Below, in pieces: positions 15,893-22,974 of a DNA stretch of 64,000 bases (positions are counted from its first letter, which is position 1; the number at the start of each line of letters is the position of its first letter). Source of the stretch: an uncultured Elusimicrobia bacterium (GTDB lineage Bacteria; Elusimicrobiota; Elusimicrobia; UBA1565; UBA9628); contig CAZIBN010000002.1 in assembly GCA_964537395.1 (NCBI GenBank), positions 14,301 through 78,300 on the forward strand, in the 5' to 3' direction. A program made the translations under genes and the position numbers. Below the pieces are notes generated by a model. The model made no database searches and was not told the origin of the DNA. It saw only the letters and a list, made by a program, of their open reading frames with translations.

Positions 15893-17284
15893 TCAGCGTC
15901 CGACGAGCGCCTTCTTGCCTTTCTTGGCCACGGGCTTGGGAGCCGGAGCGGCCGAGGCGGTCTTCGAAGGGTCGTAGTAGTCGAGGCCGCTGTGGTCGAG
16001 AACCTCTTCTCCCATGAGCACGCGAAGCGTGTTCTTGAGCTTGAGGTGCTGGATGAAGAGGTCGTGCTCGGGCTTCAGGTCCTCGCGGCACTGGGGCGAT
16101 TTAAAGAAGAACGACAGCCACTCCTGAATGCCCTTGAGCTCCGCGCGCTTGGCGAGGTCGAGGAAGAGGACCAGGTCGAGCACGATCGGCGCCGCCAGGA
16201 TCGAGTCGCGGCACAGGAAGTTGATCTTGATCTGCATCGGCATGTCCATCCAGCCGCGGATGTCGATGTTGTCCCAGCCTTCCTTCGCGTCGCCGCGGGG
16301 AGGGTAATAGTCGATGCGGACCTTGTGGTGGAAGTTGCCGTACAGCTCGGGGTAGAGCGCGGGCTCGAGGATGGTGTCGAGGACCGACATCTTGCTCAGC
16401 TCCTTGGTCTTGAAGGACCCCGGATCGTCGAGCACCTCGCCGTCGCGGTTGCCGAGGATGTTCGTGGAGTACCAACCGGTGAGGGCCAGCATGCGCGCCT
16501 TGAGCATGGGCGCGATCGTGGTCTTCATGAGGGTCTGGCCGGTCTTGAAGTCCTTGCCGCAGATGGGCGAGCCCGTCTGCTCGGCGAGCTCCAGCAAGGC
16601 CGGGATATCACAGGACAGGTTCGGCGCGCCGTTGCCGTAGGCCATGCCGAGCTTGATCGCGGCGTAGGCGTAGATCATGGACGGCGGGATCATCGGGTCG
16701 TTATTTATGAGGCCCTGCTCGAAGGACTCGATGTCCTCGTGGGACTTCGAATGCTCGGGCAGGCGCTCGGTCGAGCCGCACCACAGCATGACGACGCGAT
16801 CGCAGCCGTTCTTCTTCTTGAAGCCCTCGATGTCGGCCATCACCTGCTGGGCGAGGTCCATCTTGGTCTTGCCCTTCTTGGGGTTGAGGGCCTTGATGTT
16901 CTTGATGTAAGCCGGGTCGTAGATCGGGGACATCGGCTTGATCGCGGAAAGCTCCTTCTTGATCGGCGCGAGCTTGGCCGCGTCGAGGACGCCGCACTTC
17001 GTCGCGGCGACGAACATGTCGTCGGAGAAGAAATCCCAGCCGCCGAACACGAGCTGCTCGAGGGAGGCCAGGGGCACGAAATCCTTGATGAGCGGCGAGC
17101 GGTTCTCGTAGCGCTTGCCCAGGCGGATGGCCTGCATCTGCGTGACGGAGCCGACGGGCGTGCCGAGGCCCTTCTTGACGAGCTCCACGCCGGCGATGAA
17201 GGTGCTGGTCACCGCTCCCATTCCGGGGAGGAGGATGCCGAGCTTACCCTTGGCTGGCTGGATGCGGCTGTCGTGCTTGTTCAT
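15893..17284 (-). CDS. ino1: myo-inositol-1-phosphate synthase (MIPS)
   Basis: 463 aa. Archaeal/bacterial-type MIPS features: LGILLPGMGAVTSTFIAG (NAD-binding N-terminus), LWCGSTE, NGAPN, SKMSVLD, and a conserved C-terminal core. Confidence 0.85.
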   Translation of the reverse strand: MNKHDSRIQPAKGKLGILLPGMGAVTSTFIAGVELVKKGLGTPVGSVTQMQAIRLGKRYENRSPLIKDFVPLASLEQLVFGGWDFFSDDMFVAATKCGVLDAAKLAPIKKELSAIKPMSPIYDPAYIKNIKALNPKKGKTKMDLAQQVMADIEGFKKKNGCDRVVMLWCGSTERLPEHSKSHEDIESFEQGLINNDPMIPPSMIYAYAAIKLGMAYGNGAPNLSCDIPALLELAEQTGSPICGKDFKTGQTLMKTTIAPMLKARMLALTGWYSTNILGNRDGEVLDDPGSFKTKELSKMSVLDTILEPALYPELYGNFHHKVRIDYYPPRGDAKEGWDNIDIRGWMDMPMQIKINFLCRDSILAAPIVLDLVLFLDLAKRAELKGIQEWLSFFFKSPQCREDLKPEHDLFIQHLKLKNTLRVLMGEEVLDHSGLDYYDPSKTASAAPAPKPVAKKGKKALVGR

Positions 17285-18437
17285 TGTGGTTGATTCTCCT
17301 GAGAAACAGCATGATCGCGAAAAACAGGGTGCCGCCGATGGCGGCGGCCCAGAGGAACTCGTACACCATGTCCACGAAGGCCAGGAGCACGAGCAGGTAG
17401 ATGAAGTCGCGCTGGGCGAGCGCGTTCTCGAGGCGGGACAGCTTGGATTCGAAGCCGTCGCCCTCGGGTTGCTCCACGACGCCGGCCTCGGGCCCCTTCG
17501 TGCTGCGGCGGGCGAGGCGGTGCTTCCAGGCGGTCCACGCCGAGGCGAGCACGCCCGCGTCGGCGATCGCTGCCAGGGCCAAGGTGTGCACGCCGTTGCC
17601 CGTCCGCCAGAAGCCGATGCCCAGGCAGGTGAACAGGGCCAGATGCACGAGGTTGTCGCCCCAGAAGTCGAGGTCGGAGCCGAGAGGGCTTTCCTGGAAG
17701 CGCACGCGCGCGAGTTCGCCGTCGCAGCCGTCGAGCACCGAGTGCAGCCAGATCAGAAGGGCGCCGATCACGTAGAAAAGGCGGGTGTCGCCCAGAAAGA
17801 AGCTCGCTCCGATCAGGCCGAGGATCGTGCTGAACACGGTCATCTGATTGGGCGTGACCGTGGTGTCGAGCAGGGCGCGGCTTGCGGCGAGCGAAAGGTG
17901 GCGGTCGAAGTGGCGGGCCATGAAGCCGTCCTGCGGCTTGGGCCCCGCGACCATGAGCCAATCCACGATCGGGCCCTGGGAGAGCGGCGCCTCCAGGCGG
18001 ATGCAGGAGCCTTCGGGCAGGGGCTGGCCGGTGCGGTAGATCGTATCCTCGCGGGTGAGAACGACCTGGACGACGCTGAGGACGGAGGCGTCGTTGTAGC
18101 TGACTGAGGTGGGAAAGCTCTGCCGGGCGATGAAGGCCAGGGTCTCGATGCGGATGAGATGGTCGGCGGAGATGCCGAGATAGGGCGGCTCGCATTCGGT
18201 CAGCGCCGCCGTTCCCTTGGTCACCCAGCGCACCTCGAGGCCGGGCGGCAGGCGCATGATCCCAATCTGGGCGTCGTCGGGCTTGGACATCGCGACGAAG
18301 ACGGACTTGATGCCCGCGCGAGCGAGGGTGAACAGCTGGCGCTCGATGACGAGCATGCCGCCGGCGCGATGCCAGAGGAGCTTGGGATGGGCGACCCAGA
18401 GGATGGCACGCGTGAAAACATTCTCCGCTGCGGTCAT
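17244..18437 (-). CDS. IPCT/DIPPS-like protein: degenerate nucleotidyltransferase-like N-domain fused to a CDP-alcohol phosphotransferase
   Basis: Start at the ATG at 18437 (ATGA overlap with the upstream stop), 397 aa. CDP-OH_P_transf motif DGCDGELARV...G...D...GD. Linker DGFMARHFDRHLSL...VTPNQMT resembles the DIPPS linker. The N-domain lacks GxGxRL. Multiple TM helices. Confidence 0.75.
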   Translation of the reverse strand: MTAAENVFTRAILWVAHPKLLWHRAGGMLVIERQLFTLARAGIKSVFVAMSKPDDAQIGIMRLPPGLEVRWVTKGTAALTECEPPYLGISADHLIRIETLAFIARQSFPTSVSYNDASVLSVVQVVLTREDTIYRTGQPLPEGSCIRLEAPLSQGPIVDWLMVAGPKPQDGFMARHFDRHLSLAASRALLDTTVTPNQMTVFSTILGLIGASFFLGDTRLFYVIGALLIWLHSVLDGCDGELARVRFQESPLGSDLDFWGDNLVHLALFTCLGIGFWRTGNGVHTLALAAIADAGVLASAWTAWKHRLARRSTKGPEAGVVEQPEGDGFESKLSRLENALAQRDFIYLLVLLAFVDMVYEFLWAAAIGGTLFFAIMLFLRRINHNEQARQPHPASQG

Positions 18438-21605: not shown

Positions 21606-22312
21606 CGGTTCGTCTCCACGGTGAGAAATGTTTCGGCGGCATGTAAGTCTTCGGGCCGGTCCACGTCGAGAGATTTGGAGAGGATAACACCTTTAACGAC
21701 CGCGCCTGAGGCGACGAGATCTCGAAAAAAATCCCTAAGTCGAGAATGCCGTTCAGCCTGCGGAATATCCGTCGCGGCCTTCCGAGTCATGTAATAAAGG
21801 CCGCAAGTCACGGCGTCCTTACGCTTCGCGTCGGCGCCAAGGGCTGTTATGCGGCCATTCGCGTCCGCGTCGGCCCACAAGGGTTTCTCGTCGTCGACAT
21901 GCAACGTTAAAGCAAGTCCCGCGTCGGCGTTGGAGCCCCGGCATTCGCGTATGAATCGAGCGACATCGTCCGTCTTGATCAACGCGTCCACGGTGCTCAC
22001 GATGAATTCTCGATTCGTTGCCGTTTCCGCAAGCCGTTTGGAAACGAGCCGGAACGACTCGAACGATGAGGCCGTGTCGGCCGTCACGAAATCGAATTTG
22101 ACGTCGGGGAATGCTGAGGACAGATAAGGCGCGACTGCGTCGCCGCGCGAATTGGTCAAAACGACAATGTCTTTACACCCCGCCGAGCGCAATCCGACGA
22201 CCACCCAATGGATGAGCGGCTTCGCCGCTATATTTATCATCGGCTTAATCGTGCCCGGATGGCTCTTGCTCAGGCGCGAGCCCTCGCCGGCGGCGATGAT
22301 CGCGGCTCTCAT
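21602..22312 (-). CDS. Nucleotidyltransferase (NTP_transferase fold; candidate inositol-phosphate cytidylyltransferase)
   Basis: 236 aa. Intact signature MRAAIIAAGEGSRL...KPM, followed by an alpha/beta nucleotidyltransferase fold pattern. 4-bp overlaps on both sides. Confidence 0.75.
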   Translation of the reverse strand: MRAAIIAAGEGSRLSKSHPGTIKPMINIAAKPLIHWVVVGLRSAGCKDIVVLTNSRGDAVAPYLSSAFPDVKFDFVTADTASSFESFRLVSKRLAETATNREFIVSTVDALIKTDDVARFIRECRGSNADAGLALTLHVDDEKPLWADADANGRITALGADAKRKDAVTCGLYYMTRKAATDIPQAERHSRLRDFFRDLVASGAVVKGVILSKSLDVDRPEDLHAAETFLTVETNR

Positions 22313-22974
22313 CCGAGCGCCGCCTCGAGCTCAGTCACCGAGCGCAGCGTCCAATGCTGGCCTGCTTTTGGCGGCTTCGCCGCCGCTGAAATCAACGCGA
22401 TTTTCATGCCGACGCCGGCAGCGCCCGCCATGTCGCGCTTGACCGAGTCCCCGACCATCACGCACTCCGCAGGGGAGGCGTCGACCGCCTTGGTGGCGTG
22501 GAGGAAGATCGCGGCGTCGGGTTTGGTCACGCCGAGCACGCCGGAGTCGGCGACCACGGAGAAGAGCGGGCGCAACCCTTCGGCGGTCAGGATCCCATCG
22601 AGGTTGCCGTAGAAATTCGACACGATGCCGAGGCGGTAGCGCTTGGCGAGGCGCTCAAGCACGGGGGCCAGGCGCTGGAACTGGCCGCGGCAGTCGGCAA
22701 CAAAACGGCCGGCGATCGGGTCGACCAGGTCGCTGCGGTGCGGAGCCAGGATCTTGATCACATCTTCGACCTGGAGGCGCACGGTTTGCGCCAGGTCCAG
22801 GCCCTTCAACGCGTGCCGGATGTGAAGGTTGTCGTCGGAATCGTAGAAGGCGCGGTCAAAGAGATCCTTTGGGAAATCAAGGCCGGCTTCCTTATAAATG
22901 GGGTGGAAGCGCTCGAGCCAGGTGGTTCCATCGGCATCGAGGGTCCCCCCATAGTCGAACAACAGGGACTTCAT
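22309..22974 (-). CDS. HAD-superfamily hydrolase/phosphatase
   Basis: Start placed at the ATG at 22974 (MKSLLFDYGGTLD...), 221 aa. HAD motif I variant FDYGGTL, motif II IVSN, motif IV GDSVKRD. A perfect TATAAT lies 6 nt upstream. The track start 23046 adds 24 aa with no support. Confidence 0.75.
   Translation of the reverse strand: MKSLLFDYGGTLDADGTTWLERFHPIYKEAGLDFPKDLFDRAFYDSDDNLHIRHALKGLDLAQTVRLQVEDVIKILAPHRSDLVDPIAGRFVADCRGQFQRLAPVLERLAKRYRLGIVSNFYGNLDGILTAEGLRPLFSVVADSGVLGVTKPDAAIFLHATKAVDASPAECVMVGDSVKRDMAGAAGVGMKIALISAAAKPPKAGQHWTLRSVTELEAALG

Follow-up and report, generated by a model that had tools for sequence, protein, structure and literature searches.

What does a bacterium assemble with an operon in which a myo-inositol-1-phosphate synthase (MIPS), a nucleotidyltransferase, a HAD-type hydrolase and a cytidine diphosphate (CDP)-alcohol phosphotransferase are encoded together with a dehydrogenase, an aminotransferase and an ATP-grasp protein? 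The question is raised by seven minus-strand genes in a 64,000-nucleotide stretch of an uncultured Elusimicrobia bacterium (GenBank assembly GCA_964537395.1, contig CAZIBN010000002.1, positions 14,301 to 78,300; hereafter, the window). An earlier note on this DNA, made from the sequence alone, had proposed that the operon builds an aminated, possibly N-acylated, inositol phosphodiester or lipid head group. In our analysis, an aminated inositol phosphodiester or lipid head group is still the most convincing product, and the dehydrogenase and aminotransferase genes were found with the inositol core in 61 of the 62 Elusimicrobiota loci with room for them and in other phyla. We lean, with moderate confidence, towards the view that the product of this single operon is a phospho head group derived from inositol, most likely in aminated form, and that a CDP-activated route of the Kennedy type leads to it.

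The seven genes are predicted to be a single tightly coupled transcription unit, on the basis of their overlaps, a -10 box and a terminator (Table 1). Three junctions are 4-bp ATGA start/stop overlaps (22309-22312, 21602-21605, and 18434-18437), whereas the fourth 4-bp overlap, between the aminotransferase stop and the dehydrogenase start (19414-19417), reads CTGA. The ATP-grasp and aminotransferase genes are separated by a 5-nt gap (20758-20762), and MIPS starts 41 bp inside the phosphotransferase gene, with AGGAGA 10 nt upstream of its start. All of the gene coordinates and junctions in the earlier note hold on the map of open reading frames (ORFs) and the sequence, and its claim of one operon is borne out by the coupled junctions, the conserved -10 box and the strong terminator. 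The terminator, which it had placed at 15847-15868, has an energy of -32.8 kcal/mol (z = -5.1), and none of 200 shuffled sequences fold as well. The TATAAT box at the 5' end is also real, as (T)TTG/A-G-TATAAT is kept 6-8 nt from the ATG of the HAD gene in ~35 orthologous Elusimicrobiota loci. A sigma-70 scan found no -35/-10 pair at the operon 5' end; it overlooked the TATAAT at 22986-22981 because this box has no -35 partner. Since the box lies only 6-8 nt before the ATG in these ~35 loci, the operon mRNA is probably leaderless, with the conserved -10 box as its promoter.

Table 1. Features of the seven-gene operon, listed in the direction of transcription, with positions in the window.
Feature	Length	Position (strand)	Evidence or description
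-10 box TATAAT		22981-22986 (-)	6 nt 5' of the HAD start codon
HAD-IA family hydrolase	221 aa	22309-22974 (-)	Pfam Hydrolase + HAD_2
NTP-transferase (sugar/polyol-phosphate nucleotidyltransferase)	236 aa	21602-22312 (-)	Pfam NTP_transf_3 + NTP_transferase
ATP-grasp protein	280 aa	20763-21605 (-)	AlphaFold fold match
Class-III pyridoxal phosphate (PLP) aminotransferase	447 aa	19414-20757 (-)	Pfam Aminotran_3
Gfo/Idh/MocA NAD(P) dehydrogenase	327 aa	18434-19417 (-)	Pfam GFO_IDH_MocA + C3 domains
CDP-alcohol phosphotransferase, Af2299-type	397 aa	17244-18437 (-)	Pfam CDP-OH_P_transf
MIPS (myo-inositol-1-phosphate synthase)	463 aa	15893-17284 (-)	Pfam NAD_binding_5 + Inos-1-P_synth
Intrinsic terminator		15843-15872 (-)	13-bp G+C-rich stem + 4-nt loop + T-run

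The earlier note had recognised a core of MIPS, a putative cytidylyltransferase, a CDP-alcohol phosphotransferase and a HAD phosphatase, and this core was confirmed at the family level. The chain from MIPS through a cytidylyltransferase to a CDP-alcohol phosphotransferase is established chemistry for di-myo-inositol phosphate (DIP). MIPS matches Pfam NAD_binding_5 (1.9e-93) and Inos-1-P_synth (2.2e-33), is 70-95% identical across the phylum, and, at the family level, would make inositol phosphate from glucose-6-phosphate. The NTP-transferase matches NTP_transf_3 (1.5e-11) and NTP_transferase (8.8e-9) and has an intact AAGEGSRL motif. It aligns with the whole IPCT half of NCBIfam model NF041135, but at 38.8 bits against a cut-off of 580; other sugar-phosphate nucleotidyltransferase models outscore NF041135, and its PDB matches, which include LicC and MurU, are weak and generic. 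We infer that this protein is an (amino)inositol-phosphate cytidylyltransferase. The HAD protein matches Pfam Hydrolase (9e-17) and HAD_2, with only subfamily-level matches in NCBIfam. Its motifs II-IV are intact, and its motif I reads F-D-Y-G-G-T-L, in which Gly replaces the Asp+2 general acid/base. This D-x-G is conserved in 74 orthologues as well as in Bacteroidales and Thermoanaerobaculia-like homologues, and motif I is D-x-G-(G/A)-T in every phylum examined (the window and loci L081, L084, L166, L167, and L169). The HAD protein is probably a phosphatase, but with a D-x-G motif it is doubtful as a simple one, and its reaction may be something other than simple phosphate hydrolysis.

The aminated character of the proposed product depends on the two genes that encode the aminotransferase and the dehydrogenase. 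A dehydrogenase followed by an aminotransferase is the classical route from a secondary alcohol to an amine. The start of the dehydrogenase gene is unusual: its Rossmann GxGxxA motif (MNKIRRVGLVGFGAIA) is retained only with a CTG start at the CTGA overlap, and the first ATG/GTG/TTG, at 19348, would remove it. The CTGA with GAGG 8 nt upstream (19414-19430, minus strand) is kept in ~25 related species, and farther relatives have ATG at the equivalent position. We accept the CTG start because the Rossmann motif needs it and because the CTGA/GAGG arrangement is conserved in these ~25 species; it is probably a rare, conserved non-canonical start that would be read by translational coupling. The EKP motif with the catalytic Lys and the D-x-x-x-H motif (D-H-G-W-H) are conserved in the dehydrogenase, whose assignment holds at the family level only. 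The aminotransferase matches Pfam Aminotran_3 (3.8e-99), and its nearest solved structures are archaeal gamma-aminobutyrate (GABA)-aminotransferase-like enzymes and racemases (E 6e-69).

Conservation of the gene order, which the earlier note had suggested as a check on its proposal, was examined in 80 Elusimicrobiota loci from a scan of species-representative genomes. All seven genes occur in the same order in 44 of the 80 (tblastn), and contig ends truncate most of the remaining loci. The arrangement, which reappears in practically all related species, is thus not due to chance; the homologues of the ATP-grasp protein at 65-97% identity are all from Elusimicrobiota metagenome-assembled genomes (MAGs). 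Profile hidden Markov models (HMMs) place the aminotransferase and dehydrogenase genes directly after the ATP-grasp gene in the 61 of 62 loci mentioned above. MIPS is non-adjacent in four loci, and locus L071 has neither the NTP-transferase nor the transferase. A shorter cluster type is present in L025 (2381-7810) and L026, which encode an ATP-grasp protein, a universal stress protein (Usp), a dienelactone hydrolase, an Af2299-type transferase and MIPS, with no aminotransferase and no dehydrogenase. L026 is from the same MAG as the full seven-gene locus L003, and so represents either a paralogous system or a binning mixture.

The seven-gene set extends beyond this phylum to Thermoanaerobaculia-like and 'Nitrospirae' genomes, and HMM annotation found all seven genes, including a rearranged version, in 21 of 47 further metagenome loci. 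Three architectures can be distinguished. The first has the seven genes with a window-type transferase and comes from soil, peat and groundwater. The second is rearranged (ATP-grasp, aminotransferase, transferase, dehydrogenase, in some cases LPG_synthase_TM, HAD, and MIPS) and has a Bacteroidales-type transferase. The third is the five-gene Bacteroidales form, whose loci encode CarboxypepD_reg, an NTP-transferase::ATP-grasp fusion, CDP-OH_P_transf, LPG_synthase_TM, HAD, and MIPS. The named relatives in the second clade are mostly Thermoanaerobaculia, together with one 'Nitrospirae' MAG. The co-occurrence of the pair with MIPS and DIPPS-like genes, on which the earlier note had made its proposal depend, is thus found in other phyla as well as in Elusimicrobiota.

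As both enzymes come from very broad families, the pair might be an unrelated passenger, for example from amino acid or sugar metabolism, in a plain CDP-inositol lipid operon whose product is ordinary phosphoinositol. Profile and structure comparisons found an inositol-specific match for neither enzyme, and the core module works without them in Bacteroidales. However, the pair is flanked by core genes on both sides, its stop and start codons overlap or nearly overlap with those of its neighbours, and it is almost invariably kept in Elusimicrobiota, and recurs in other phyla, even in the rearranged cluster with the other transferase type. We therefore consider the passenger explanation very unlikely. 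The pair is better regarded as a true add-on to a five-gene core, and as such it would predict an inosamine-type head group.

The ATP-grasp protein had been grouped with the pair in the earlier note as a trio, but it appears to belong to the core. It has no Pfam match, and relaxing the thresholds brings up RimK, YheCD and Ins134_P3_kin, each of them marginal; the best E-value for Ins134_P3_kin (PF05770) among 16 orthologues, 0.032, does not reach the Pfam threshold, and some Bacteroidales fusion members give faint matches to the same family. The family calls of the earlier note were confirmed for the other six proteins by Pfam and NCBIfam, and for this one by an AlphaFold (AF2) model instead. 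The model, built on 16 orthologues, has a mean predicted local distance difference test (pLDDT) score of 89.9 and TM-scores of 0.70-0.75 to LysX, ArgX, RimK, and ITPK1 (0.70 to ZmITPK1). The three-domain fold, the ATP-binding Lys and the Mg-binding acidic-x-Asn motif are present, and K136, D233, D246, and N248 are invariant family-wide. The family profile matches PsnB (6e-8), ITPK4 (7e-6), RimK (5e-5), and ITPK1 (2e-4). Its invariant D-x-N lies in a motif, FGGD...IDxN(D/S)WPSF, that aligns with ITPK1 and ITPK4.

A full-library profile search returned 987 clusters of this family, with several kinds of fusion: NTP-transferase::ATP-grasp (~520 aa; Bacteroidales, Thermoanaerobaculia), HAD::NTP-transferase::ATP-grasp (Elusimicrobiota), ATP-grasp::N-domain::CDP-alcohol phosphotransferase (700 aa), and NTP-transferase::ATP-grasp::CDP-alcohol phosphotransferase (~820 aa). 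No fusion to an aminotransferase or a dehydrogenase was found among them. Because it is fused to the NTP-transferase or the CDP-alcohol phosphotransferase in other lineages, the ATP-grasp protein belongs to the core module, and what the earlier note took for a trio is really a pair added to five core genes. Fusions of a kinase to a cytidylyltransferase are a normal way of feeding cytidylyltransferases. By a modest preference, we favour the ATP-grasp protein as an ITPK-like kinase that would feed the cytidylyltransferase.

The earlier note had instead suggested that the ATP-grasp protein might N-acylate the aminated product, forming a trio with the two enzymes of the pair. It would then be an amide-forming ligase, which would join the amine of the inosamine to an amino acid or some other carboxylate. 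In the fold search, the ligases ArgX, LysX, and RimK are indeed the best matches, the top profile match is the ester- or amide-forming PsnB, weak NCBIfam matches point to MptN, RimK, and LysX, and the ATP-grasp gene directly adjoins that of the aminotransferase. However, the Bacteroidales and Tannerella clusters keep the ATP-grasp domain, usually fused to the NTP-transferase, without a dehydrogenase or an aminotransferase and therefore without an amine, so that its role cannot depend on one. The fusions, moreover, join it to the HAD, NTP-transferase and CDP-alcohol phosphotransferase domains, and the aligned ligases carry E-x-N where this family has D-x-N. N-acylation by this protein is therefore unlikely, and the kinase role remains our preference.

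A Tannerella sp. cluster (L169/L170, 8656-13105) also speaks for a kinase: an NTP-transferase::ATP-grasp fusion, a CDP-alcohol phosphotransferase, a HAD protein and a divergent MFS transporter are encoded there without MIPS, a layout that would suit a cell that imports inositol and then activates it. In T. forsythia, which has no MIPS, inositol phosphoceramides are made from inositol supplied from outside, and no inositol kinase has been identified (PMC4587543).

Transfer to an acceptor would fall to the CDP-alcohol phosphotransferase. Its signature, D-G-x2-D-G-x2-A-R-x8-G-x3-D-x3-D, is intact, and D236-G-C-D-G-E-L-A-R is invariant in 27 sequences from three lineages. The protein has six hydrophobic segments, corresponding to six transmembrane (TM) helices, and an N-terminal domain of ~170 aa. 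The earlier note had called it IPCT/DIPPS-like. Its membership of the CDP-alcohol phosphotransferase family stands, but the nearest relative is Af2299 rather than IPCT/DIPPS: in profile searches of the PDB it matches Af2299 (4O6M) at 1e-36, AfIPCT/DIPPS (4MND) at 4e-20, and PIP synthase at 1e-14, with 130 bits for Af2299 versus 76 for AfIPCT/DIPPS, and it shares ~60% identity with Af2299 over a 100-residue core. The DIPP synthase equivalog NF041135 is not reached (73 bits, cut-off 580). The N-terminal domain has no GxGxRL motif, and hhalign relates it to the NTP-transferase of the operon only weakly (E 0.003, probability 10%). Af2299 and DIPPS are the two family members in which an N-terminal cytidylyltransferase-like domain is known (PMC4634129), and the architecture shared with Af2299 suggests that the domain in the window is possibly a degenerate version of it. 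A single-sequence AlphaFold model of the transferase (pLDDT 43) was too poor for a fold search.

Similarity to these enzymes raises the question of whether the product is a lipid at all. An Af2299/DIPPS-type enzyme could join a CDP-alcohol to a soluble (amino)inositol-phosphate, after which the HAD protein would remove a phosphate, as in the conversion of DIPP to DIP; the result would be a soluble phosphodiester, serving as a compatible solute or for storage, that resembles DIP or glycerophosphoinositol and possibly has one aminated ring. The transferase shares with both enzymes the N-terminal extramembrane domain and six-TM layout, and, as described in PMC4634129, neither processes lipids and six-TM enzymes use soluble acceptors. 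According to Heaver et al. (2022; PMC9246714), the HAD protein is fused or adjacent to the transferase in some lineages (fused in P. veroralis), which suggests that it acts on the transferase product. In addition, a flippase-like LPG_synthase_TM gene is absent within 10 kb of the operon, both in the window and throughout the set of 80 Elusimicrobiota loci. The number of TM segments was considered as a test for lipid versus soluble acceptors and rejected, as the window-type and Bacteroidales-type transferases both have about six hydrophobic segments; it does not discriminate in favour of a solute.

DIP-type solutes are known from (hyper)thermophiles, whereas the carriers of this operon are mesophiles from groundwater, soil, and gut. 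The genes around the homologous clusters also point to lipids. In three long non-Elusimicrobiota contigs (L166, L167, and L168), LPG_synthase_TM precedes the seven genes, and the flanks contain dxs, ispH, ispG, an hpnH-like radical SAM gene (DUF3463), an hpnG-like gene (PNP_UDP_1), and a squalene/phytoene synthase gene; from these hopanoid and isoprenoid neighbours, the acceptor might possibly be a hopanoid or another isoprenoid lipid. In Elusimicrobiota, bamA-skp-lpxD-lpxC lies directly 3' of the operon on the same strand in 30-36 loci, and in the window these genes are found 7 kb downstream. As described by Heaver et al. (2022; PMC9246714), the related Bacteroidales cluster tracks with the production of inositol sphingolipids, and Rhodothermus marinus makes an ether lipid from CDP-inositol, as cited in PMC4587543. 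For these reasons (the mesophilic hosts, the flippase-like, hopanoid/isoprenoid, lipid A and BamA neighbours, and the two lipid precedents), we regard the soluble product as a serious but distinctly less probable alternative. On balance, we incline to a membrane lipid as the acceptor (diacylglycerol, an ether lipid, or one that is ceramide-like), which would yield a zwitterionic aminocyclitol phospholipid of the cell envelope.

Taken together, the proposed route would start with the inositol phosphate from MIPS. The HAD protein would act as a phosphatase, on inositol phosphate early in the route or on a phosphorylated product at its end, with action on the lipid acceptor as a further option. 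The Gfo/Idh/MocA dehydrogenase would oxidise one ring hydroxyl to a ketone, which the class-III aminotransferase would turn into an amine, converting an inosose to an inosamine. The ATP-grasp protein, as an ITPK-like kinase, would supply the phosphate ester needed by the nucleotidyltransferase, which would in turn make CDP-(amino)inositol, and the membrane transferase would pass phospho-(amino)inositol to an alcohol acceptor. The sequence does not fix the order of these steps, nor whether oxidation and amination would take place on the free cyclitol, the phosphate ester, the CDP-ester or the lipid.

A number of observations weigh against this route. Family-level support covers MIPS, the nucleotidyltransferase and the Af2299/DIPPS-type transferase with its intact signature, and from there the individual substrates are extrapolated, as is the nucleotide specificity (CDP). 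The HAD protein is without the Asp+2 general acid/base of classical phosphatases. The fold search gave equal TM-scores for ligases and ITPK/PPIP5K kinases, and so did not separate kinase from ligase, and ArgX, LysX, RimK, and PsnB score at least as well as the ITPKs against the ATP-grasp family. The best NCBIfam match of the dehydrogenase, inositol 2-dehydrogenase IolG (TIGR04380), reaches 64 bits against a cut-off of 355. The aminotransferase belongs to class III, whose members related to it include racemases and lyases, and not to the DegT/DnrJ/EryC1/StsC fold type of known inosose aminations. The closeness of the transferase to two non-lipid enzymes and the lack of a nearby flippase-like gene in Elusimicrobiota, both described above, count on the same side.

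A more complete version of the proposal can be stated, which we put forward tentatively and regard as possible but rather doubtful. The head group would be an inosamine phosphate on a membrane lipid, made by a complete Kennedy-type route, and the ATP-grasp protein would be a new cyclitol kinase and the 'missing' inositol kinase of Bacteroidetes and Tannerella. If so, the operon would define a previously undescribed class of zwitterionic phospholipids in Elusimicrobiota, in Thermoanaerobaculia and in further bacteria from soil and groundwater, and a kinase related to the eukaryotic ITPKs. Inositol lipids have been regarded as rare among bacteria, and, to our knowledge, only a single organism has been shown to use the CDP-inositol route. 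The present loci indicate a CDP-inositol-type module that has become fixed throughout a candidate-rich phylum and is also common among Acidobacteriota-like lineages of soil, where the added pair would predict a nitrogen-bearing cyclitol head group; we know of no lipid or solute survey that reports one. The 'NTP transferase' of the alternative cluster in gut Bacteroidetes can also be reannotated as a two-domain enzyme with an ATP-grasp half, and this half would be a specific candidate for the inositol kinase long sought in bacteria, possibly related to the eukaryotic ITPKs.

The wider neighbourhood of the operon is conserved in part. A divergent pilMNOPQ operon is a neighbour in ~58 or more Elusimicrobiota loci. 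Horizontal transfer of the inositol operon was considered and rejected, as its G+C content is in line with that of the rest of the window and it keeps its synteny with the pil and bamA genes. On the plus strand, a promoter close to consensus (TTGACA-17 nt-TATAAA, 23040-23068) faces the divergent pilM; the scan overlooked it because the last -10 base is A. Many orthologous loci retain the pilM promoter block (aacaggtttaccc...ttgtcaaggcc on the other strand). On the other side, between the terminator and bamA, the minus strand at 10834-15703 has three or four ORFs that lack a Pfam match and whose N-termini resemble signal peptides; they look like a lineage-specific insertion because the operon abuts bamA directly in 30-36 other loci. 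Beyond them lies a classical outer-membrane/lipid A block (1803-8570, minus strand), with bamA at 6027-8570, skp at 5062-6027, lpxD at 4007-5065, and lpxA at 1803-2849. In the region at 28000-36300 on the plus strand, the G+C content is ~0.70 and the AT skew is strongly negative, reaching -0.42. The proteins encoded there are a Wzy_C O-antigen-ligase-like protein, a pair of highly hydrophobic ~650-aa proteins without a Pfam match, a Trm112/methyltransferase protein, a GT4 glycosyltransferase and, after these, an asparagine synthase; the region resembles a surface-polysaccharide locus, and no tandem repeats were found there.

How does the operon compare with known systems? In the literature searched, we found no description of this gene set, of inosamine or aminoinositol lipids, or of inositol metabolism in Elusimicrobia, in agreement with the earlier note, whose author knew of no characterised pathway with this combination of genes. 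The closest counterpart is the 'alternative' inositol lipid cluster of the Bacteroides (Phocaeicola) vulgatus type, which is putative and of unconfirmed function (Heaver et al., 2022; PMC9246714); no follow-up work on this cluster was found in the literature searched. Using HMMs from the window orthologues, we detected homologous MIPS, HAD (with the same D-x-G motif I), NTP-transferase and ATP-grasp domains there at 110-700 bits, and the cluster also has a CDP-alcohol phosphotransferase, so that five of the seven genes in the window have counterparts. There, the 'NTP transferase' protein contains the ATP-grasp domain as its C-terminal half, whereas a separate gene encodes this domain in the window; the passages of Heaver et al. 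(2022; PMC9246714) on the cluster do not discuss this half. The cluster has no dehydrogenase and no aminotransferase, and it carries a gene for LPG_synthase_TM and CarboxypepD_reg, neither of which is found in the window operon. Its transferase is of another subtype, ~300 aa long and without the N-terminal domain, and scores 27-54 bits on the window-type model versus 215-284 bits for type-A loci.

The MIPS-IPCT-BEPIS operon of R. marinus produces a CDP-inositol-dependent dialkylether glycerophosphoinositol (Jorge et al., 2015, as described in PMC4587543). Compared by that description, it shares the logic of MIPS, then a cytidylyltransferase, then a CDP-alcohol-family transferase with CDP-inositol as the donor, and it includes no ATP-grasp, HAD, dehydrogenase or aminotransferase gene. 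The Archaeoglobus fulgidus enzymes Af2299 and IPCT/DIPPS have the same N-terminal extramembrane domain, six-TM layout and catalytic signature as the transferase of the window, and the DIP pathway also shares the CDP-alcohol donor and a final phosphatase step. By contrast, the N-terminal domain in the window is without GxGxRL and the active cytidylyltransferase is presumably the separate gene, the phosphatase is of the HAD type rather than an IMPase, and ATP-grasp, dehydrogenase and aminotransferase genes are added, in mesophilic hosts.

For the amination, the nearest parallel is the start of streptidine biosynthesis, in which myo-inositol is converted to scyllo-inosose, scyllo-inosamine, and scyllo-inosamine 4-phosphate with a dehydrogenase of the Gfo/Idh/MocA family. 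The order proposed here (MIPS, phosphatase, dehydrogenase, aminotransferase, and kinase) would be the same, and the dehydrogenase is of the same family. However, the streptidine aminotransferase is of the DegT/StsC type and its kinase of the APH type, compared with a class-III enzyme and an ATP-grasp-fold candidate in the window, and the streptidine product goes on to amidino- and glycosyl-transfer rather than to a CDP-alcohol route. As for the candidate kinase, eukaryotic ITPK1 and ITPK4 have in common with it the ATP-grasp fold and a C-terminal Mg/ATP motif with D-x-N, although sequence similarity is limited to ~50-95 residues and ligases score equally well. Finally, the Kennedy pathway, with its kinase, cytidylyltransferase and phosphotransferase, is mirrored by the fusion of the putative kinase with the cytidylyltransferase, followed by the CDP-alcohol phosphotransferase. 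Overall, the operon is an uncharacterised new variant of the CDP-inositol pathways and not a new category.

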